Positions 1,441 to 48,818 of a stretch of 64,000 nucleotides of DNA are shown one piece after another. Numbering within the stretch: the first letter of the stretch is position 1; each line of letters opens with the position of its first letter. The notes under the pieces were generated by a model that was given only the letters and a program-made list of their open reading frames with translations, ran no database searches and was not told the origin of the DNA. This stretch comes from Escherichia coli (GTDB taxonomy: Bacteria > Pseudomonadota > Gammaproteobacteria > Enterobacterales > Enterobacteriaceae), in the NCBI RefSeq assembly GCF_001677475.2, contig NZ_CP015229.1. The stretch is one strand, 5' to 3'. The translations under genes and the position numbers were made by a program.

Positions 1441-1898
1441 TTAAATCATGGTGGGCAGAAAAATCCACATCGGAAAAACAGATCGTTGCGGCACTGGCGG
1501 TTCTCTCGCTCGGCGTTTTTTGTTGGCTTGGGGTGATAAAACCGATAGATACCTACATTGCAGAGCATCAGTCCCACGCGCAAAAAATTAAGAAGGACAT
1601 CAAATGGATGCAGGATCAAGCGAGCACCCATGGTTTACTTGGTCATCCTGCGCTTACGCAGCCCATCAAAAATATCCTTCTCGAGGAAGCAAAACGTGAG
1701 AATTTGACTATCACGCTGGAAAACGGTCCGGACAATACTCTGACAATTCATCCTGTCACAGCTCCCCTCGAAAACGTCTCCCGCTGGCTCACTACGGCAC
1801 AGATAATACACGGTATTGTTATTGAAGATCTTCAGTTTACTCTTGTCGGAAACGAAGAGATCACCCTCAAGCATTTGTCCTTCAGGGAGCAACAATAA
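1437..1898 (+). CDS. gspM: Type II secretion system protein GspM
   Basis: ORF 1413-1898; likely start MIKSWWAEK at 1437 overlapping gspL stop; N-terminal TM helix. Confidence 0.75.
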   Translation: MIKSWWAEKSTSEKQIVAALAVLSLGVFCWLGVIKPIDTYIAEHQSHAQKIKKDIKWMQDQASTHGLLGHPALTQPIKNILLEEAKRENLTITLENGPDNTLTIHPVTAPLENVSRWLTTAQIIHGIVIEDLQFTLVGNEEITLKHLSFREQQ

Positions 1899-2575
1899 TG
1901 GCAATGCTACTGCCGCTCTTCATTCTGGTTGGTTTTATTGCAGGTTATTTTGTTAATGCCATGGCCTATCACCTCTCGCCTTTGGAGGATAAAACGGCGT
2001 TAACGTTTCGCCAGGTATTGGTTCATTTCCGGCAAAAAAAATATGCCTGGAATGATACAGTGCCCCTGATACTTTGTGTTGCTGCTGCTATCGCCTGCGC
2101 CCTGGCACCTTTCACGCCCATCGTGACTGGCGCACTCTTTCTCTATTTCTGTTTCGTACTCACGCTCAGTGTTATTGATTTTCGCACTCAGCTCCTGCCC
2201 GACAAACTCACCTTACCGCTGCTCTGGCTTGGCTTGGTATTTAATGCGCAGTATGGATTAATTGATTTACATGATGCGGTTTACGGCGCGGTAGCGGGCT
2301 ATGGGGTGCTGTGGTGTGTTTACTGGGGCGTCTGGTTAGTTTGTCACAAAGAGGGATTGGGCTACGGTGATTTCAAGCTACTGGCCGCTGCAGGCGCATG
2401 GTGTGGCTGGCAAACGTTGCCAATGATACTGCTGATTGCCTCGCTGGGTGGCATTGGTTACGCCATCGTTTCACAACTTCTGCAACGCCGGACTATAACC
2501 ACTATCGCATTCGGCCCGTGGCTTGCGCTCGGCAGCATGATAAACCTGGGGTATCTGGCCTGGATCTCTTATTAA
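1898..2575 (+). CDS. gspO: Prepilin leader peptidase/N-methyltransferase (A24 family)
   Basis: 225-aa polytopic membrane ORF with GYGDFKLL motif typical of prepilin peptidases; start overlaps gspM stop. Confidence 0.85.
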   Translation: MAMLLPLFILVGFIAGYFVNAMAYHLSPLEDKTALTFRQVLVHFRQKKYAWNDTVPLILCVAAAIACALAPFTPIVTGALFLYFCFVLTLSVIDFRTQLLPDKLTLPLLWLGLVFNAQYGLIDLHDAVYGAVAGYGVLWCVYWGVWLVCHKEGLGYGDFKLLAAAGAWCGWQTLPMILLIASLGGIGYAIVSQLLQRRTITTIAFGPWLALGSMINLGYLAWISY

Positions 2576-3514: not shown

Positions 3515-6217
3515 TTATTGCTTAGTAAACGGCGCGAAGATTTCGCTAAATGCGTACTTCGGTGCCTGTTCTTTAGTCAGGCCGTGGAATTCCGGAGACA
3601 GGTTAGTGCCGCCTGGCAGGTCGCGCGCGATTGACCAGATACCAACCATACCGAGATTACGCTTCTGCGCATCCTGCATGACCAGACGAGCATCAGAGAG
3701 ATAGAACACCTCGCCCTGAACGTCGTTCACGCCAACCATCGGCGTGGTACCCATCATAGCGTCAATTTCTGCATCGCTCTTGTTGGGATGGAGGCCTTTC
3801 AATTGTGAATGCAGGTTGGCAATCGCAGACGTTGCACACTTACCGTGAATGTTCTGGCCTTCGGTATTTGCAGACTGACAAATCGCGTTACCGTAGTCCA
3901 TTGTCATCACGTTCACACCCGCCAGCTCAACACCTTTCGCTTTGGCATCGCTCAGGACATTCATCCCTTCCGGCGTCAGGCCAGTCGGCAGAATTGGCAA
4001 GGTGTACCAGATAGCAATATCTTTGCCTTCTGACTTCCATTTATCCTGCACTTTCTTCACAGCAAGGTTACGACGTTCAATAGATGCCTGATCCGCAACC
4101 CAGGTGCCTTCGATATCGAAGTCCAGGACTCTGAGGTTCAGGTTATCAACGATGTCATAATAATGCTGCATCAGATCGTCTACGTTCTTACAGGAAGCAG
4201 CCAGCGGAGCGTTGTTAGCACCACCGATAGACAGCATCACATCGCCGCCAGCCTCACGCAGGGCTTTGATTTTGCTGTACTGAGCGTAATTTTGCATACC
4301 ATAAGCGGTACCCCATGTCGGCAGACAGGTGTTCGCATCTTTACTCACCACAAACGCCAGCGTGAAGTGGTTGACGTTATGATTCTTAGCCAGCGCAGCC
4401 AGATCCGGGATCGTATTCAGCGTAAAGTCAACATACGGTGCATAAACGTGTTTCGGCCACGCTTTCTTCGGCGTACCTACACGTTCTTTGGTTCCGGTCC
4501 AGTCAACAAAAACACGCCACGGGTTGCTGTCAGAAGGAGAAACTTTCTGCACTTTACTCTGAGAAATGTAGTTCGCACCGTTAAAGCGAATCAGCGTATC
4601 GCTGGTATAAAGCGTTTCTGGATTAAACTGCGGCGCATTATTCAGCTCTTCGTTGCTATAGCTCTGAGCCTTACCTAACGGCTTCCACGGGCGGCTATTG
4701 CTACCGGTGGCGTTTTGGTTCGCAACCAGAGCAGGGTTGTCACTTTGCGTCCAGAACAGCGCTTCATAAGCCTGCCCATCAACAACAACGCGATCACCTT
4801 TCACGTACACAGTGGATGCGGACCATGCTTTCGCCGGTTCGTATTTCTTCCACGGGTTATCACCGCCTGGGACAAAGCCCCATGCGTCTTGATCGACAGA
4901 AGTTTTATAATGTGCATCGTTATAATCTACGATGCTGTCCGCGCTGTACGCTTTGCTGGCCTGGAAACCATCCGCAACAATGACGCCGCCGTTATCAATT
5001 TCACAGGTAGTCGGGTTACCGTACTGACTCAATTCCGCAGCGGTAGCTGTACGCACGAGACGCCATGGGTTATTGGAGTTTTCAGCGCTGGTACCCCGTG
5101 GGCAATCTTTAGACCCAACCCACCAGGCGTTCTTGTAAACATTACCATTGAAAATAACATGGTAAATTTCGCTACCTTCCTGGCCGCTCCACGCTTGCAA
5201 TGAGTAATCGTTACCGCTATCCGCTGGTGTTGATGGCTCGTTGTTATCCGGAGTTGGGGTAACCGGAGTTTCTGGTGTTTCCGGAGTTGGATCAACCGGA
5301 GTCACAGCACCGCCATTATTATCCGGCTTAACGGAACAGGAGCCAGGGTTACCATACTGACTGATTTCTGTTGCCGTTGCCGTGCGAACATAACGCCATG
5401 GGTTACTGGCATCGTTTTCTTTCGCATCGCCTGGGCAATTTGCCGCGCCTACCCACCAGGCGTTCTTATAAATGCCGCCGTTGTAGATAACGTACCATGT
5501 AGAAGAACCTTCCTGACCTTTCCAGGCTACGACAGCATAGTTGTCGTTTGACTTATCAGCTGGGGCTGGCTGAACATCAGGAGCCGGTTTAACGTCCGGT
5601 GCCGGTTTCACATCCGGTGCAGGCTGTGGTGCTGAAGTACAGGACTGTGGATTACTGGTTTGCGTGATTTCCGTTGCCGTAGCGGCACGAACATAACGCC
5701 ATGGGTTGCTGGCATCATTGCCTTTCGCATCACCCGGGCAGTTAGAAGAGGCTACCCACCAGGCATTTTTATATACCGCACCATTAAAGACGACATACCA
5801 GGTCTGACCGCCCTGCTGTTTATTCCAGGCAACTACAGAAGAATTAGACGGAACAGTGCCCTGTGCTGGTGTAGCCGAACCGCCATTAGCCGGCGTATTG
5901 GATGCAGGCGTATTTGAATTTGAAGAAGATGAGCTGCCGCTCTTTTCGCAGGAAAGTGTATTGCCATACTGACTAATTTCAGCAGCTGTCGCGGTACGCT
6001 TTAAACGCCACGGGTTAGTTGCATCATTTGCTTTCGCTTTTCCCGGGCAATTTGTAGAAGAAACCCACCAGGCATTTTCATAAATTTTGCCATCGAAAAT
6101 AACCTGATATTTATTACCACCTTGTTGGTTATTCCATGCTTCCATTGCCAATGCTGGCAGAGCGGAACACACCAGCCCCATACCAATCATAGATTTAGTA
6201 AATATATTTAATTTCAT
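3515..6217 (-). CDS. chiA: Periplasmic endochitinase with N-terminal signal peptide and tandem carbohydrate-binding modules
   Basis: 900-aa ORF; signal peptide; four ~65-aa tandem repeats (AWxxQQGG...NAWWV...NPWR...C) plus further chitin-binding-like modules; C-terminal catalytic domain with DFDIEG motif. Confidence 0.9.
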   Translation of the reverse strand: MKLNIFTKSMIGMGLVCSALPALAMEAWNNQQGGNKYQVIFDGKIYENAWWVSSTNCPGKAKANDATNPWRLKRTATAAEISQYGNTLSCEKSGSSSSSNSNTPASNTPANGGSATPAQGTVPSNSSVVAWNKQQGGQTWYVVFNGAVYKNAWWVASSNCPGDAKGNDASNPWRYVRAATATEITQTSNPQSCTSAPQPAPDVKPAPDVKPAPDVQPAPADKSNDNYAVVAWKGQEGSSTWYVIYNGGIYKNAWWVGAANCPGDAKENDASNPWRYVRTATATEISQYGNPGSCSVKPDNNGGAVTPVDPTPETPETPVTPTPDNNEPSTPADSGNDYSLQAWSGQEGSEIYHVIFNGNVYKNAWWVGSKDCPRGTSAENSNNPWRLVRTATAAELSQYGNPTTCEIDNGGVIVADGFQASKAYSADSIVDYNDAHYKTSVDQDAWGFVPGGDNPWKKYEPAKAWSASTVYVKGDRVVVDGQAYEALFWTQSDNPALVANQNATGSNSRPWKPLGKAQSYSNEELNNAPQFNPETLYTSDTLIRFNGANYISQSKVQKVSPSDSNPWRVFVDWTGTKERVGTPKKAWPKHVYAPYVDFTLNTIPDLAALAKNHNVNHFTLAFVVSKDANTCLPTWGTAYGMQNYAQYSKIKALREAGGDVMLSIGGANNAPLAASCKNVDDLMQHYYDIVDNLNLRVLDFDIEGTWVADQASIERRNLAVKKVQDKWKSEGKDIAIWYTLPILPTGLTPEGMNVLSDAKAKGVELAGVNVMTMDYGNAICQSANTEGQNIHGKCATSAIANLHSQLKGLHPNKSDAEIDAMMGTTPMVGVNDVQGEVFYLSDARLVMQDAQKRNLGMVGIWSIARDLPGGTNLSPEFHGLTKEQAPKYAFSEIFAPFTKQ

Positions 6218-7763: not shown

Positions 7764-9890
<2,127 letters not shown>

Positions 9891-9974
9891 TTATCTTTTA
9901 GGCGTTCAATTTAAGTAGCCCAAAGCGGGCTGCTTACTGGAAGCGCCCGCCTGGTGACTAAAACTCCGAAGGGA

Positions 9975-10460
<486 letters not shown>

Positions 10461-10541
10461 TTAATTCAGGATTGTCCAAAACTCTACGAGTTTAGTTTGA
10501 CATTTAAGTTAAAACGTTTGGCCTTACTTAACGGAGAACCA

Positions 10542-11018
<477 letters not shown>

Positions 11019-11041
11019 AGAAATATACAACGATCCCGCCA

Positions 11042-11329
11042 TCACCAGGCCATCTGGCTGGAGTGCTTAACCGTAAGTCTGACGAAATCAGTATAGTCAA
11101 TGGGAATGATGTCGTTCGAAATTTGACCAGTCAAACCGCGGGCAATAAGGTCTTCGTTCAGGGCATAGACCTTAATGGGGGCATTACGCAGACTTTCAAG
11201 GTAGCGGTTACCGTCAACTGCGGCAGTTACGCCATCTTGCAATAATAGCAGTTCGTCGCCTTCACTGAACAGACGCAGCAGCGCAGCAAAATCCGTCAGC
11301 CAGGGTGAACGATGTAATGTGTGCAGCAT
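11042..11329 (-). CDS. tusB: Sulfurtransferase complex subunit TusB
   Basis: 95-aa ORF; position and size in tusBCD operon upstream of rpsL. Confidence 0.85.
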
Positions 11330-41212: not shown

Positions 41213-41263
41213 GGACCGTCCGGCGCTGAATTTAGCTTGATTGCCGAACGGGGCTATCCAGCA

Positions 41264-42349
41264 TTAAATACTGGCAATACTCTCACGCAAAATCCGCAGC
41301 ACCGTCTCTTCACCGCTGCGATTTGGGTTAATACGAATCGCGTAATGTTCGAGTTGCGGATTCGCCTGGCGAAACGTTCCGGAAAGGCGATAAAAAAGCG
41401 GCGGGATCTCATATTTCGACTCTGCACCAACCGGGTAAGGCAAGGCACCGCGCTTTTGCGCCTCTTCCAGTACTCTGGCGGCAATCGGCTGATGAAACTC
41501 CACAATCAACACCTTCGACTGTGCATTGGCAATCACCGCGCTTTTCACGTCCGCCACTGCGCCACCGTTAAGTAAAGCCAGCAACCGTTCAGATACCCCC
41601 GCCTGCACCGCGTGCATCACTGGCGCAAACACCAGCCCACGCAAGACTTCCAACGCCTGCGCGCCCTGAATCTGGCTGCCGCCGGAGTAAAGCGTGGCGC
41701 GAATACGGTTGATAACATCAGCATCGCCTACCACCGCGCCAACACCCTCTGGCCCAAATAGCTTGAAGCAGGAAAAAGTCGAGACATTCGCCCCGCATTC
41801 GCAGCCGATTCGCGCTACCTTCATCACCGCATAGTTGTCATCGGTTAAGGCTGGAACACTTGCCGCGCGCAACGTTGCCAGCACATCTGCCAGCACATAG
41901 CTATCCTGCGGCTGCTGGCGCGTATGCTGCACCAGCGCGGCATCTGGTTGTTGCTCGTCGACAACCTGCTTCAGTGCCGACAGGTCATTGAAATCAGCAG
42001 TGATAAGCGTCAGCCCCATCTGCTCAATAATGACCTGAGTCGTCGGGTAAACCGGCGCGTCATGCACCAGAAGACGCTGCCCCGGTTTGAGCAAAACCGC
42101 CAACGCCGCACGAATCGCTCCAGTACCCGCGCCCTGCACCAGCGCCGCAGCCTGTGCGTGAAATGCATCAGCCAGCACCTGTTCCACACGCTGGGTAATG
42201 CGCGGTTGATTCAGTCCCGGCGTTAAGCCTAAATCACCGCCAGCAAGAAACTCGCTGCCGGGAAAATGGCGGCAAATCGTGTCCACCAGCGCAAACTGCT
42301 TTTGCTGCGCCTCAATAAGCGTCAGGCTTTGCAGAGGAAACGTCTTCAT
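41264..42349 (-). CDS. yhfS: Predicted PLP-dependent enzyme YhfS (fold-type I-like)
   Basis: 361-aa ORF; candidate PLP-lysine in STFSCFKLFGPEG; last gene of yhf cluster. Confidence 0.8.
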   Translation of the reverse strand: MKTFPLQSLTLIEAQQKQFALVDTICRHFPGSEFLAGGDLGLTPGLNQPRITQRVEQVLADAFHAQAAALVQGAGTGAIRAALAVLLKPGQRLLVHDAPVYPTTQVIIEQMGLTLITADFNDLSALKQVVDEQQPDAALVQHTRQQPQDSYVLADVLATLRAASVPALTDDNYAVMKVARIGCECGANVSTFSCFKLFGPEGVGAVVGDADVINRIRATLYSGGSQIQGAQALEVLRGLVFAPVMHAVQAGVSERLLALLNGGAVADVKSAVIANAQSKVLIVEFHQPIAARVLEEAQKRGALPYPVGAESKYEIPPLFYRLSGTFRQANPQLEHYAIRINPNRSGEETVLRILRESIASI

Positions 42350-42360
42350 AGGTGCCTTCC

Positions 42361-43665
42361 TTAAGCTGGAACAAACAGACCAAGCCAGTAAAGAACATTC
42401 AGCAGAATACCGGTGATCATTACTGCCACGACCGGTGCCGCCATTTTCTGTACCGGACGGCCCAGGGATTCGTTGAAGAAGTAAATGGCAACCGCGATAG
42501 AGAATCCGGTATAATCCGCCATTTTAATTGCTGCGAAAATCGAACCGACCAGCAGCGCCACTTCCATCAGCATATTCATGGCGTTACGGATGTTATCCGA
42601 CGCATTACGCACCGACGGATAGCGCCCCAGCCATTTGCCAATCGAACGAAGCAGTAAGACTTCCGCCGAAATAACCACTGCGCCTAATACCGCTGCAACC
42701 ATCGGATTCGGCGAGAGATAGCCCACCGCATAAACAAAGGTAAAGCCCGCAACTGCATACACGCCAGTGGCTAACGCCGTGGTGGCAATCAACGGCACAA
42801 ACCCCAGTCCGCGCATAAATTCTGCCAGAGCCGCCTGATTAATCAGCGTTTGCGATTGTTCCGGCGTTACGCCTGCGGAATATGCTTTCTCCAGTGTGAA
42901 GATCGAAACTTCGCTACCAGCAAAAATCTTCATGCTGGCAACGGCGGCAATCAATGCTCCCACGATGGCGATATACGGTAAGTTTTTGATAATCCGCGAC
43001 GTGCGTTCTTCAAACACCGAAAGCCCGCTGGCATCAATGTCATTTTCATCACGATGACGCAAGTCGTGAGTTATCGCGATCCCCAGCAGCATCACCATGC
43101 CAATAAAGATTTCGATGGATTCAGGGTTAAGATGTGGGAAATAGCGCACGACGACCACACGGGTCATCAGTACCACCACGGCGGCGATCAGACTTTGCTT
43201 CCAGCCAAACTGGTAGAAAATCGCCACCAGCGGGAACAGTGCAAAAGCTGAAACCACCGGCGAGCTTAATTCCCCCAGGCTACCTAATACATCCACCGGT
43301 AGCGCGGTCAGCAGCTGGTTTACCGGCAACAGGCAAGTAAGGATCTACACGCCCCAGATAGCGCCAAGACCAAACGCCATCAGGCTGTTTATCGCCAGTA
43401 CGCCGAGGATATCGGTAGGAAGAAAGAGTAACCATGCGTTGAGCAGCCCGGTTTTCAGGGTAAACGAGATCCCCACCGAGGCCACAAAACCAATGCTCAG
43501 ACCAAAAGCGATACTCCCCGCCTCGCGACGGTTCATATAGCCTTCAATCAGTTGCGGCAGGATCGGGCGGATACCGTCATGAAAAACGGCCGCCGAGCGA
43601 TGCGCCAGAAGCGATGTCATACCCGTCAGGCACGCCACCACGATAATCTGAATATACAGATCCAT
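42361..43665 (-). pseudogene. yhfT: yhfT membrane transporter-like gene interrupted by in-frame TAG at 43345-43347 (106-aa N-terminal ORF + 322-aa remainder in same frame)
   Basis: ORFs 43345-43665 and 42361-43329 share one reading frame, separated only by TAG plus 5 sense codons; 106+1+5+322 = 434 codons, the length I recall for intact YhfT. Confidence 0.75.
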
Positions 43666-43676
43666 AGTCGTGCCTT

Positions 43677-44030
43677 TTATTTCAGATGGTTAATCAGCAT
43701 CGGAATCGCGTGTTCGACATGCTCAACGGAAAGCCCAAACGCCACTTTCCCTTCGGCGATCATTTTGGCGATATGTTCGTCTTTCGCTTTAATGCCTGGT
43801 TTGGCAATGGTGCAACTTTTGTTATAGCCAATCACCGCGATGGCAATCGACAATGCCGCGCCCGCACCGGTATTACACGCGCCGATGTAGTAATCCAGTT
43901 GCCCGGATTTCACTTTCATTGCCGCTTCCATGTCGTTGTGAATGAAAACTTCAAAACGGCCAGGAGCCGTCGCTTCAATGGTTTTTTTAATCTGCTCACG
44001 CTGTAAGCCTGCAACACCAATCTTTTTCAT
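43677..44030 (-). CDS. yhfU: Uncharacterised protein YhfU (DUF family)
   Basis: ORF 43677-44069; probable start MKKIGVAGLQ at 44030 (117 aa). Confidence 0.8.
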   Translation of the reverse strand: MKKIGVAGLQREQIKKTIEATAPGRFEVFIHNDMEAAMKVKSGQLDYYIGACNTGAGAALSIAIAVIGYNKSCTIAKPGIKAKDEHIAKMIAEGKVAFGLSVEHVEHAIPMLINHLK

Positions 44031-44040
44031 GAGTCTGTCC

Positions 44041-44919
44041 TTATTGGAAAAATTGAGAGGGAGTTTCACGTAACATCACATCCACATCGGCCTGACTGAA
44101 TCCTGACTGGCGCAATTGCGGAATAAAGGTGGTCAATAAATAGTCATAGCCATAACCACCGTTGGCTTTTAAATGGGAGCGGCGCGTAATATCCATCGAC
44201 AGCATGACGCGGTTCAGCAACCCACGGTCGCGTAGCGCATGAAGCATCGCAATACGCATTTCGTCCGGGTAGTAACTGTTCTTACCAATGGTGTCGAACT
44301 GCACATACGCGCCGAGATCGATCATCTTCAAAATGTTGTCGAGGTTGTCTTTCAGATCGCAGTGACCAACGGTGACGCGCGAAAGATCAACTCCGTGGGC
44401 TTGCAGTAGCGCCAGTTGTTCCAGACCCATGGTGCTAAAAGAGGTATGCGTGGAGATCGGACGTCCGGTCTGGTTATGTGCCAGCGCGGCGGCAATAAAC
44501 ACCTTCTCTTCCAGCGGCGTAATCTTCCCTTCGCTGGAGCCGATCTCCGCGATGATCCCGGCTTTCAGCTCCGTGCCATCGATACCCTGTTCAATTTCAT
44601 CGACCATCTCCTGCGCCAGTTCCTGCACGCTGCGGGTCGCCACATGTTGCGGGAAAAACGCGTCCTGGTAATAACCGGTACAGGCCACCACGTTGATCCC
44701 GGTTTCGCGCATTACATCGAGCATAAATTGCGCATTGCGCCCCATATAACGGTTGGTCATCTCAATCACATTACGCACGCCCTGGGCCATCAGGTCGTTC
44801 ATCTCCTGGCAAATGAACGCATACTGATCAAGGCGGCAGTCCACGTTGTTTTTAAAGCCTGAGAGATCAATATGCAGATGCTCATGGGCGAGGGTGTAAC
44901 CCGTCGGATCAAAACTCAT
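44041..44919 (-). CDS. php: Phosphotriesterase-homology protein (amidohydrolase superfamily, binuclear metal centre)
   Basis: Probable start [20 protein letters not shown] (292 aa); HxH metal-ligand motif. Confidence 0.9.
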
Positions 44920-46142
44920 AGGGTGTCTCCTGCAAACCGGAGGGAGGAAAGAAAAGAGCAACCATTTTGTGGCGGTGGCGCACGGAAAAATTCACACACG
45001 GTAGCCCCCACATCAGAAAGCGTGGTGCGCACACCGAGTTGCGTGTGGACCAGCCCTTGCTGATAAACCAGCACCGGCACCATTTCGCGGGTATGGTGGC
45101 TGTGACCGATTGTCGGATCGTTACCATGATCCGCCATCACGACCAGGCAATCATCTGGCTGCATCACCTCAACAAGCCGGGCAAGGTTTCGGTCAACGAC
45201 CTGCAAACGTTCGGCATAACGTGCGACGTCTTCTGCGTGACCAGCGAGGTCGGTTTCCTGGATATTGGTGCAAATAAACGCCGTCGGATGCGTGTTAAAT
45301 TCGTCGAGGGTGATATCCATAATCCGCTGGCTATCCACCAGGTTTTGCCAGCTCACGCCATAAGGATTGCTGGCAATATCCGCCACTTTCCCCACCAGCA
45401 CGGTTGGTACGCCCACTTCATACAGTTTTTGTGGCACCTGCACTTTATCATCGACACCGTAGCCCATATGCACGACCTGGAAGCCGTTGTCATAAGCGCC
45501 TGAACGCGGCGCATTGATACCAATAAAGCGCCCTTCTTTGCTTTCTGCGGCATCGAGAATGCGTTGACTGTCGGGTAACAGGCCGCCAAATGTAATGACC
45601 CGACCGACCTGTACCTGCTCACGCACAATACGACCAATTTTGATTGCGTCGTCAAAAGAGATCACAGAGAGATTGGCGGTGATGTTATAGACCTGGCCTA
45701 AATCCGCCTCGAGATTATCGCCAATCGCAACCGCCTGATTGACCCACAGAAATTGCAGATCATCGCCACGGCGCTCCACCTGCCAGCCTGCGGAAACTAA
45801 TGCCTGCTCAACACGGTCAATCACATCGCGAAAGGGCATCCGCAGCGGCGGTAACGGGCGCGTGCCTAAAATTTCCTGATGCCCCATAAAGGTATCGCCA
45901 CCTTCATGTTGCAGCTCTGCCACGCCCCAGGTTGCGGAGTCTGACGGCTGCATATCTCCAGGCGCATAACCTAATGCGTTGATTAGCCCCATTTTCTCCA
46001 GCATTGGTAGCTGCAAATGCGGCAACTGGCTCAGGATGTGACCACAGGTATTTGCCCCGGCATCCTGCGGACGCACCAACGTGACATCTTTCATTGCCCC
46101 TACGCCAAAGCTATCAATCACTAACACCACAAATCGCGCCAT
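44916..46142 (-). CDS. yhfW: Phosphopentomutase-like protein (alkaline-phosphatase superfamily)
   Basis: 408-aa [22 protein letters not shown] resembling DeoB N-terminus; stop overlaps php start. Confidence 0.85.
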
Positions 46143-47305
46143 TACGCCTCCAGAGGGTTGCCGAGGCTGTCATAACGACCCACAATCTCTGCCGCGCCAC
46201 GCTGAATACCAGACACCAGCACCACATCGCTACGGGTGACAAAAATCTGCGTGCGAAAACAGAGCACCACTGCACTGCTTACCGGATGCTCACCTGCCAG
46301 CGGCAGGGTGTAGTCGATACCGCTGTCATCCACGGCTTTGAGATATGTTTCAGTCACGCTTTGATTCTCTGGCGTAAACACCAACGCATGTTGCGCATGA
46401 CCACGACGGTAATAACCGCCGCCGTAGCAGTAGCTGTCACCACGGAAGTGATGGGAAATTTCGCTCAGCCAAAGCATCGCGATACGTTCAGGCTGGTCTC
46501 CCTGCTGGTTTACCGGAATCGTCCCCGTCAGTGCATGACCGGGTTCGGCATGAGTCACACCGTATTCCGCCAGTAATGGCAGCGAAGTGCAGCTGGTCGC
46601 TGAAGGCGCGTTCAGTTGCTCAATCGCAATACCAGATTTCGCCAGTTGATCCCGTACCTGTATCAGCGTGTGAAGATTCGGTGTCGGCAAAACTTTCCCG
46701 GCAGCCTCATCCCAAAGCAGGCAAGGGAAATGGGTTAGTCCGGCTAAATGCAGCCCCGGCAGTTTCTTAATTTCAGCAACCACCTCGTGCAGCGAATGCT
46801 GTACAAAACCGCTCTCCTGCCCCGGATAAAGAAAATCATCGTCGCTATAAACTTTGAGCAGCACAGACTGGATTCGCCCGGCCTTCACCGCCGCCGCAGA
46901 AACTTCCCGCGCTTTGTCGAGAGTAAACACGGTGATGACGTCGGTGCCCTGTTCAACGGCGTCAGCAACCTGATGACAAGGGATTTGTACCAGATGCCCC
47001 TGATGCGCCACCGGCAAACCAGCGCGGCGCATGACTCGCGCCTCTTTGTAATCCACCGCCACAATGCCGCTGTAGCCCAATGCCAGCAGTTTTTCCGCCA
47101 GCCACGGATTACGACCGAATTGTTTGGTCATCAGATACAGTTCAATGCCGTAAAGCCGTGCCGTCTCAATCAGCCGCTTACCGTTTTCCAGTATCTGATC
47201 CACGTCGATCACCCAGCTGTCCGGGGCGATCTTGCCCTGCTGCCACAGGCTTAGTGCGGCGGAAATCAGCGCCGGGTTCTGGCGTTTCAATGCTTCTACA
47301 AACAT
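46142..47305 (-). CDS. yhfX: Alanine-racemase-fold (fold-type III PLP) protein YhfX
   Basis: 387-aa ORF; overlaps yhfW start. Confidence 0.8.
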
Positions 47306-47388
47306 CTTGTTGCCTCGTTTCTGTTCCTTGAGTTAAATATTCATTTTTTTGAATATTTAGGTTGTGCGACGTGGATTTGTCGGGAGCT

Positions 47389-47751
47389 TCAAACCTCTTC
47401 GTTAGCAGCCATCCATAATCCATAAAGGTTGGCCAGCAAATAGCCTTCTTCACACGGGTTAACTTCCAATGCGAATTCCTTCAACAACACCTGATGCAAT
47501 TGCACAACGGCTTGCCAGTGGCTGGATTGCGCCAGCTCTGCCAGCAACTCGTTATCCAGTGGCTCAATTTCTTCACCACGGCGACTGCGCATAAGTGCAC
47601 TCGCCATATGTGTCATCGCCATCGTTCCTTGCTCACTGCGCACCGGCAGATGGCACTCTTTTTCCAGTACGTTGACGACCTGCATCATGCCTTTGCAGAT
47701 GTCCTTATCGATGACCCCTGCATCGCAAAGCAGGTTGAGTCTGGTTTCCAT
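47389..47751 (-). CDS. yhfY: Small uncharacterised protein YhfY
   Basis: ORF 47389-47871; probable start METRLNLLCDAGVIDKDI at 47751 (120 aa). Confidence 0.7.
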   Translation of the reverse strand: METRLNLLCDAGVIDKDICKGMMQVVNVLEKECHLPVRSEQGTMAMTHMASALMRSRRGEEIEPLDNELLAELAQSSHWQAVVQLHQVLLKEFALEVNPCEEGYLLANLYGLWMAANEEV

Positions 47752-47767
47752 TTCAGATGCCTTTGGT

Positions 47768-48673
47768 TTAATAACTGGGTTCCTGTTCCCCACTGACCAC
47801 TCGTTGTTGATGGGCAAGCAGGGCCTGTTTATCAACAACTGCACGCAGCAATTGTTGCATTGGGTAATCATCGACTCGCGTCAGGACCACGGCTTCGGTG
47901 GCCTGTAAAAATCGCGGATCGTCTGTGAGCGGCGTCGCTTCTAATCCCAGCATGGTCAGTTCGTTTTCCGCCACCACGTTCCAGATCACCGCATCAACAT
48001 CGCCTTTAACAATGCGTTGTAAACTCTCGTGATAAGAGAGATCGACACGTTCCACATCACTATCGCCAAAAAAGACATCGGTCATGATTTTCTGATCCGC
48101 CGAACGGTTATCCAGCCCCACGCGCTTCACGTTTGCGGACTCGCCTTTACGGCATATCAACTGGTGTTCGCCAACGTAGGTGTGCGGCCCCAATTCCAGC
48201 GCGAGGCATAACCCTTTTTGCGTGAGATAACTTTCCGCCGCCAGTCGGGAAACCACCGCCATGTCATACACGCCGTTAAGTAAACACTCCACGCGAATAT
48301 CCGCGCCGCGCATATGCGCATAGTAAAAAGGAATGCCATCAAACTGGGCTTTCAATCCGCTCGCTAAACCTTCGTACAAGCGGGTATAGGGCAAAGGCAT
48401 CGCACATACCACGTTGTTGATATCCACATGGCTCAGCAATGCTTTGTTATCCATCTCGACCAGATAACTGCCATTGCGCCCACGGCGTTCAATCCGTATC
48501 GCTCCGCTTGATTCCAGTGTTTTCAACGCTGCCTGCGTCAGGCCAACGGATGAACGGCATTCAGTTGCCAGCTCATCTATGGTTTTCAACCTATTACCGC
48601 ATTTTTCACCCAACAAATAACGGGCCAGCGTCGTGATAACGACGCCTTCTTTTTTGATAAACGTTCGACGCAT
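47768..48673 (-). CDS. yhfZ: Putative transcriptional regulator YhfZ (N-terminal HTH-like, C-terminal ligand-binding-like)
   Basis: 301-aa ORF, first gene of the yhfZ-yhfS co-directional cluster. Confidence 0.8.
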   Translation of the reverse strand: MRRTFIKKEGVVITTLARYLLGEKCGNRLKTIDELATECRSSVGLTQAALKTLESSGAIRIERRGRNGSYLVEMDNKALLSHVDINNVVCAMPLPYTRLYEGLASGLKAQFDGIPFYYAHMRGADIRVECLLNGVYDMAVVSRLAAESYLTQKGLCLALELGPHTYVGEHQLICRKGESANVKRVGLDNRSADQKIMTDVFFGDSDVERVDLSYHESLQRIVKGDVDAVIWNVVAENELTMLGLEATPLTDDPRFLQATEAVVLTRVDDYPMQQLLRAVVDKQALLAHQQRVVSGEQEPSY

Positions 48674-48791
48674 AATATATTTTCAATAAAATGAATGTTT
48701 ATATCTTCATTAAAATGAAGATAAGTGGCAACTGTGAGATGTGGAAACGGCGAGGCGCTTCACATTTTTTCGGATTATTGCAAATGAGGAT

Positions 48792-48818
48792 AAAAAAACC
48801 GGGTTTCCCCGGTTTTTG
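48792..48818 (-). terminator. Rho-independent terminator downstream of trpS
   Basis: accggg-tttc-cccggt hairpin with T7 run on minus strand (A7 on plus strand). Confidence 0.8.

Follow-up and report, generated by a model that had tools for sequence, protein, structure and literature searches.

The ribosomal protein gene rpsG in the window, by which is meant here the whole 64,000-nucleotide stretch of Escherichia coli DNA that was analysed, has an ordinary end: on this reading, to which we give a probability of about 0.95, UAA followed by U terminates S7 after residue 156, the spacer beyond it is non-coding and the K-12 branch has mutated the TAA to TTA. In terms of mechanism, termination of S7 translation at UAA-U is the ancestral state, shared by E. 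coli and all the relatives sampled, and the absence of an in-frame stop over the next 22 codons of the 96-nt spacer lies within what chance would give. In one branch of laboratory K-12, which comprises EMG2, MG1655 and W3110 with the strains derived from them, TAA has become TTA (Leu) through an A-to-T mutation, and at this allele the ribosome continues over the 22 codons to a UGA, yielding an S7 of 179 residues. The polymorphism in S7 length is itself published and well known, and the observation made in the window is both real and ordinary.

The minus-strand reading, the list of open reading frames and the translation agree on a uS7 frame of 156 codons that opens with the ATG at 10445 and ends in ...KAFAHYRW (Table 1). 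The reading made earlier from the sequence alone (hereafter the sequence-only reading) had placed a TAA directly after ...AHYRW, which is exact to the base by the sequence, the open reading frames and the translation; it had further described a frame staying open for 22 codons up to a TGA 27 nt ahead of the fusA ATG, and here too all its coordinates are correct, the 27 nt being 9905..9879. The rpsG-fusA spacer of the window measures 96 nt, and the open run past the stop, which is non-coding in the window and lies within this spacer, corresponds to residues 158–179 of S7 in K-12 MG1655. The S7 of the window is a member of the ribosomal protein uS7 family, matching the Pfam profile PF00177 (Ribosomal_S7) at a score of 212.8 bits where 24 is the cut-off (E=2e-63), with residues 2–149 of the protein covering positions 1–148 of the 148 in the profile. 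As the domain ends at residue 149, the K-12 extension lies beyond the uS7 fold.

Table 1. Features at the end of rpsG and the start of fusA, in positions of the window
Feature	Position	Strand	Basis
rpsG CDS, short wild-type uS7	9975..10445	-	ORF list, translation of 9906-10445, Pfam
TAA stop, codon 157 of rpsG	9977..9975	-	sequence, 611-bp alignment with MG1655
+4 base T after the rpsG stop, giving UAAU	9974	-	sequence
22 sense codons SLRSFSHQAGASSKQPALGYLN in the rpsG frame past the TAA	9974..9909	-	translation
RNA stem-loop CCAGGCGGG / CCCGC-U-UUGG, inner helix GCUU/AAGC, loop CCAGU	9954..9920	-	single-sequence fold
TGA closing the open run; S7 stop of K-12 MG1655	9908..9906	-	sequence, comparison with MG1655
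GAGG, fusA Shine-Dalgarno	9888..9885	-	sequence; invariant in the 23-species alignment
fusA CDS, EF-G, 704 aa; ATG 9878..9876	7764..9878	-	ORF list, MG1655 annotation of the collinear region

From rpsG through the spacer into the first part of fusA, a length of 611 bp, the alignment of the window with MG1655 holds a single mismatch, at base 9976, where the window reads TAA and MG1655 TTA; the K-12 derivative ER1821R, aligned over the same 611 bp, again differs only in having TTA for TAA. The MG1655 record annotates rpsG with 540 nt and 179 aa, with TTA (Leu157), and the encoded S7 is that of the window (residues 1–156 identical) plus a 23-residue tail, LSLRSFSHQAGASSKQPALGYLN. This bears out the statement in the sequence-only reading that K-12 has a sense codon (Leu) at this position and makes a 179-aa S7. 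Its companion statement, that B-type and most other strains make the 156-aa form, agrees with E. coli B REL606, whose rpsG has 471 nt with TAA and a product matching the window S7 exactly, and with the count of complete genomes given below; the comparison of rpsG with K-12 and B genomes, which it had proposed as its own check, thus gives TTA for MG1655 and TAA for REL606. The K-12 strain NCM3722 (NZ_CP011495; L131 29951-30421) has TAA, an rpsG of 471 nt and a 156-residue S7, and the S7 proteins of the window, REL606 and NCM3722 are identical (annotated WP_001138043.1).

The window, stopping at codon 157 with a 156-residue product, accordingly carries the short wild-type (B-type) allele. The short allele, as found in E. 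coli B and in the majority of the species, shares with the window its S7, its TAA stop and its spacer, and REL606 and NCM3722 show no difference from the window at the locus. The long allele of K-12 MG1655, W3110 and EMG2 has 610 of the 611 nucleotides as in the window; it differs in Leu157, in the tail that follows and in a UGA stop 27 nt from fusA, and the TAA of the window, set against the TTA of MG1655 and ER1821R, places it outside this class. Among the E. coli S7 chains in the PDB both lengths, 179 aa and 156 aa, are present. An rpsG mutation extending the S7 C-terminus is listed as common to EMG2, MG1655 and W3110 by Browning et al. 2023 (PMC9997739), where WG1, NCM3722 and LS5218 are assigned to a separate branch. 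Since NCM3722 has TAA, the TTA allele marks only the EMG2/MG1655/W3110 branch of K-12. As relayed in that paper from Collier 2002 and Schaub and Hayes 2011, the extended K-12 S7 is tied to SsrA tagging and to the weak RF2 of K-12, the long protein terminating poorly at its UGA and being SsrA-tagged.

A separate observation concerns annotation. In all three K-12 derivatives examined, namely ER1821R, NEB 5-alpha and BW25113 (L001 256-723, L133 1-326 and L134 1-326, respectively), the automatic RefSeq annotation calls rpsG a pseudogene ('incomplete; missing C-terminus'), unlike the curated record of MG1655, which carries an intact 179-aa rpsG CDS. This flag on an essential gene looks like an artefact of matching the TTA allele to a 156-aa reference.

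The distribution of the two alleles was assessed among complete E. coli genomes. A 251-bp query spanning the stop recovers the locus at no less than 99% identity in 5,425 of 5,426 such genomes, and about 90% of the rows sampled match it at 100%. The alleles were then counted with 55-mers centred on the variable base, in which arrangement the 28-base exact word of megablast must cover that base: the TAA 55-mer is found in 5,077 genomes and the TTA 55-mer in 348 (sum 5,425), giving TAA a share of 93.6%. An off-centre TTA query returns the same split, with 348 genomes identical throughout (100%) and 5,063 that carry a single mismatch. From the 348 genomes with TTA, sixty taken at even intervals through the list were inspected by name, along with four from the off-centre query; K-12 names or traits, as distinct from genome-wide ancestry, are borne by 60 of the 60. 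They include DH5alpha, DH1, BW25113, MC4100, TG1, AB1157, HB101 and XL1-Blue-like strains, as well as J53-type transconjugants and serotype O16:H48, and the chromosomes of the sampled genomes range from 4.46 to 4.74 Mb.

The same base had been put forward in the sequence-only reading as a lineage marker showing that the window does not come from K-12 MG1655/W3110. That part stands in so far as TAA rather than TTA at codon 157 would exclude the MG1655/W3110/EMG2 branch; it does not extend to all of K-12, NCM3722 having TAA, and the marker is superfluous, given some 1,236 further differences between the window and MG1655. The window runs collinear to positions 3,463,646-3,527,800 of MG1655 and is free of insertion elements, and its differences from MG1655 fall in nearly every kilobase (98.25% identity). 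From REL606 it differs at about 700 positions (98.27% identity), and in its first 25 kb the nearest of the 5,426 complete E. coli genomes is at most 98.8% identical. By these comparisons the window is evidently neither K-12 MG1655/W3110 nor B.

Two other regions of the window may be recorded here in their own right. The yhfS-yhfZ region (41248-48815) has 95.6% identity to K-12, with 332 mismatches, as against about 98.2–98.7% elsewhere in the window; in REL606 this region is interrupted by IS1 (L132 48478-49175). The chiA frame (3515-6217, minus strand) has 900 codons versus 897 in MG1655 (2,694 nt), with an identical ChiA in NCBI draft assemblies, e.g., GCA_019140575.1 and GCA_016125675.1; the neighbouring gspO is intact in the window (1898-2575) and uncalled in several drafts with the identical ChiA.

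Within E. coli the rpsG-fusA spacer is near-invariant, a constraint that we attribute to an RNA stem-loop together with the ribosome-binding site of fusA rather than to coding. A reading that complements the ordinary end of rpsG is that the spacer sequence is kept as a stem-loop acting on the str mRNA, with candidate roles such as keeping this mRNA stable, guiding its processing or influencing how fusA translation starts; we regard the chances for and against such a functional RNA as evenly poised. The window stem-loop in full is CCAGGCGGG(C)GCUU-CCAGU-AAGC(A)(G)CCCGC(U)UUGG, with 9954..9946 and 9929..9920 as the two sides of its helix. What favours a function is, to begin with, its recurrence: a G+C-rich hairpin is found at the same place each time in the Enterobacterales, with z < −2 versus shuffles in 29 of 34 spacers. 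The window taken by itself tells against it, the folding of 9870-9985 (which contains the spacer) not being significant at z = −1.45. In the Morganellaceae the hairpin is preserved with unrelated sequence (GGGUAGC/GCUACCC and CUGGGYGGC/GCCRCCCAG), a further point in favour. Covariation points the same way: in an alignment of 23 spacers made with MAFFT, 97.1% of the cells of the 9-pair helix are paired, with five of the nine pairs compensatory, and when 31 spacers are fitted to a covariance model built from that alignment the helix is 97.6% paired, with double changes in eight of the nine pairs (29 cells). None of 500 shuffles reaches the values observed in this larger alignment, and shifted registers give at most 6 cells; being fitted to the structure by construction, however, the larger alignment leans towards it. 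Downstream of the rpsG stop it is an RNA stem-loop, rather than a reading frame, that has been conserved.

Other observations weigh on the opposite side. In the endosymbionts Ca. Hartigia and Ca. Steffania the hairpin is found in a degraded form. As a plain matter of distribution, it is absent where the spacer is only 15–30 nt long (Pseudoalteromonas, Glaciecola). A search with the covariance models of Rfam 15 gives no match at E <= 1 on either strand of 9700-11100, which sets aside a curated RNA family as its identity. An intrinsic (Rho-independent) terminator was likewise considered and rejected: the terminator scan calls no site in the rpsG-fusA spacer, and the hairpin is not directly followed by a U-tract, the tail after it in the window being UUUGGGCU, with no U-run in the Morganellaceae and no U-tract conserved overall. 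In the searchable literature no mention of an rpsG-fusA stem-loop in E. coli was found, the matches falling instead on the rpsL leader, the S7 site between rpsL and rpsG and, in streptococci, a candidate attenuator ahead of fusA. The nearest parallel is the S7-binding regulatory structure in the rpsL-rpsG spacer of the str operon (PMC3616713; PMC10931766). This is also a structured intercistronic RNA of the same operon, but it lies upstream of rpsG, whereas the window stem-loop lies downstream, between rpsG and fusA, and S7 binding is not indicated for it. Outside the Enterobacterales, Vibrio sp. S17_S38 has two hairpins after rpsG, the second with a T-run resembling a terminator, and, unlike the Enterobacterales, has no fusA start within 260 nt of rpsG.

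The classical picture of rpsG-fusA coupling was presumably worked out in K-12. Ribosomes making S7 stop 27 nt before fusA in K-12 MG1655 as compared with 96 nt in the wild type, and because the branch mutation shifts the stop in this manner, K-12 would translate through the stem-loop, a tolerance that speaks against the functional RNA. Since the translation of fusA is coupled to rpsG, according to a review (PMC10931766), and the S7 stop has moved, the K-12 arrangement may be unrepresentative. One might then go further and combine the two: a conserved stem-loop absent from Rfam, as an Enterobacterales-wide spacer element, would act in cis on how stable the str mRNA is, on its processing or on the translation of fusA, and the K-12-based picture of coupling would perhaps be invalid for wild-type E. 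coli. This wider proposal is tentative, and we hold it to be somewhat doubtful.

Much further down in probability comes the suggestion, made in the sequence-only reading, that the rpsG stop is a natural site of readthrough. In its full form, some ribosomes would decode the UAA as sense in a programmed or regulated way, so that wild-type strains too would make a functional 179-residue S7. The 22 codons open in the rpsG frame are what such a site calls for, the long S7 is viable in that K-12 lives with it, and there is structured RNA downstream of the stop. The stem-loop begins 20 nt past the stop, however, whereas known readthrough stimulators are spaced about 8 nt from it. Programmed readthrough takes place at a UGA in the phage Qbeta coat/A1 case, and such sites resemble rpsG in having a stop codon and then an open in-frame extension; rpsG differs in that its UAA-U is the strongest signal rather than a leaky one and that its extension is unconserved in length and phase. 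UAA followed by U is reported to be the most efficient termination signal in bacteria, UAA being read by both release factors (PMC5289835).

Nor does the length of the open run call for an explanation beyond chance. The base composition of the spacer implies 0.049 stops per codon, from which the probability of at least 22 open codons is 0.33, and shuffling the 96-nt spacer 100,000 times gives 0.32. After the 55 stop-to-stop frames of at least 200 codons in the same window, the in-frame open run has a median of 19 codons and reaches 22 in 42% of cases. Among the matches listed, 14 of 33 other Enterobacterales have at least 22 open codons past the S7 stop, the run being 0, 2, 3, 5, 6, 9, 11, 12, 13, 16, 17, 18, 21, 22, 23, 25, 27, 28 or 42 codons depending on the species. 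Spacer lengths in the relatives span 78–100 nt and in many cases are not divisible by three, which means that the reading phase is not kept downstream of the S7 stop. A tandem TAATAA ends rpsG in four Enterobacterales species. The carriers are Enterobacter sp. Ag1, Klebsiella sp. BIGb0407, Enterobacter sp. BIGb0383 and Cedecea neteri. The stop context, the chance expectation and the unconserved frame with its tandem stops leave the idea of a readthrough site unsupported; we consider it highly improbable, and readthrough of UAA-U in the strain of the window would be negligible.

The direction of the change was read from an outgroup scan with the codons of AFAHYRW, taking one genome per species in a random sample of at least 120 loci, the loci listed containing no Escherichia, Shigella or Salmonella species except E. 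coli itself. Among the matches listed, a stop codon directly follows ...AHYRW in all 120 outgroup loci; the other Enterobacterales, counted by distinct spacers, use TAA in 33 of 33 and have T as the +4 base in 32 of 33. Because every sampled outgroup locus stops at codon 157, TAA is ancestral and the K-12 branch the mutant, such that the rpsG of the window ends at the normal ancestral stop and TTA is an A-to-T mutation of the K-12 branch. The converse, in which the long S7 came first and was truncated in the window by a nonsense mutation, might appeal to the intact downstream frame, as expected soon after a truncating mutation, but it has virtually no probability left, being ruled out by these outgroup loci (n=120, including the 33 Enterobacterales) that among the matches listed stop at the same codon, with TTA met, among the genomes inspected, solely in K-12-type laboratory strains against TAA in the great majority of complete E. 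coli genomes, TAA present even in the K-12 strain NCM3722 and the S7 Pfam domain already over before the point of the supposed truncation.

Thus, the biological weight of the finding is small, as the window represents the ancestral state of a published polymorphism. In practical terms, base 9976 offers a rapid means of excluding the MG1655/W3110/EMG2 branch, though not all K-12, and the TTA allele would explain the automatic RefSeq pseudogene calls on the essential rpsG of K-12 derivatives. The spacer stem-loop is the sole part of the finding that might repay experiment. For E. coli itself, K-12 may be seen as an atypical strain, both in the length of its S7 and in where the translation of S7 ends relative to fusA.
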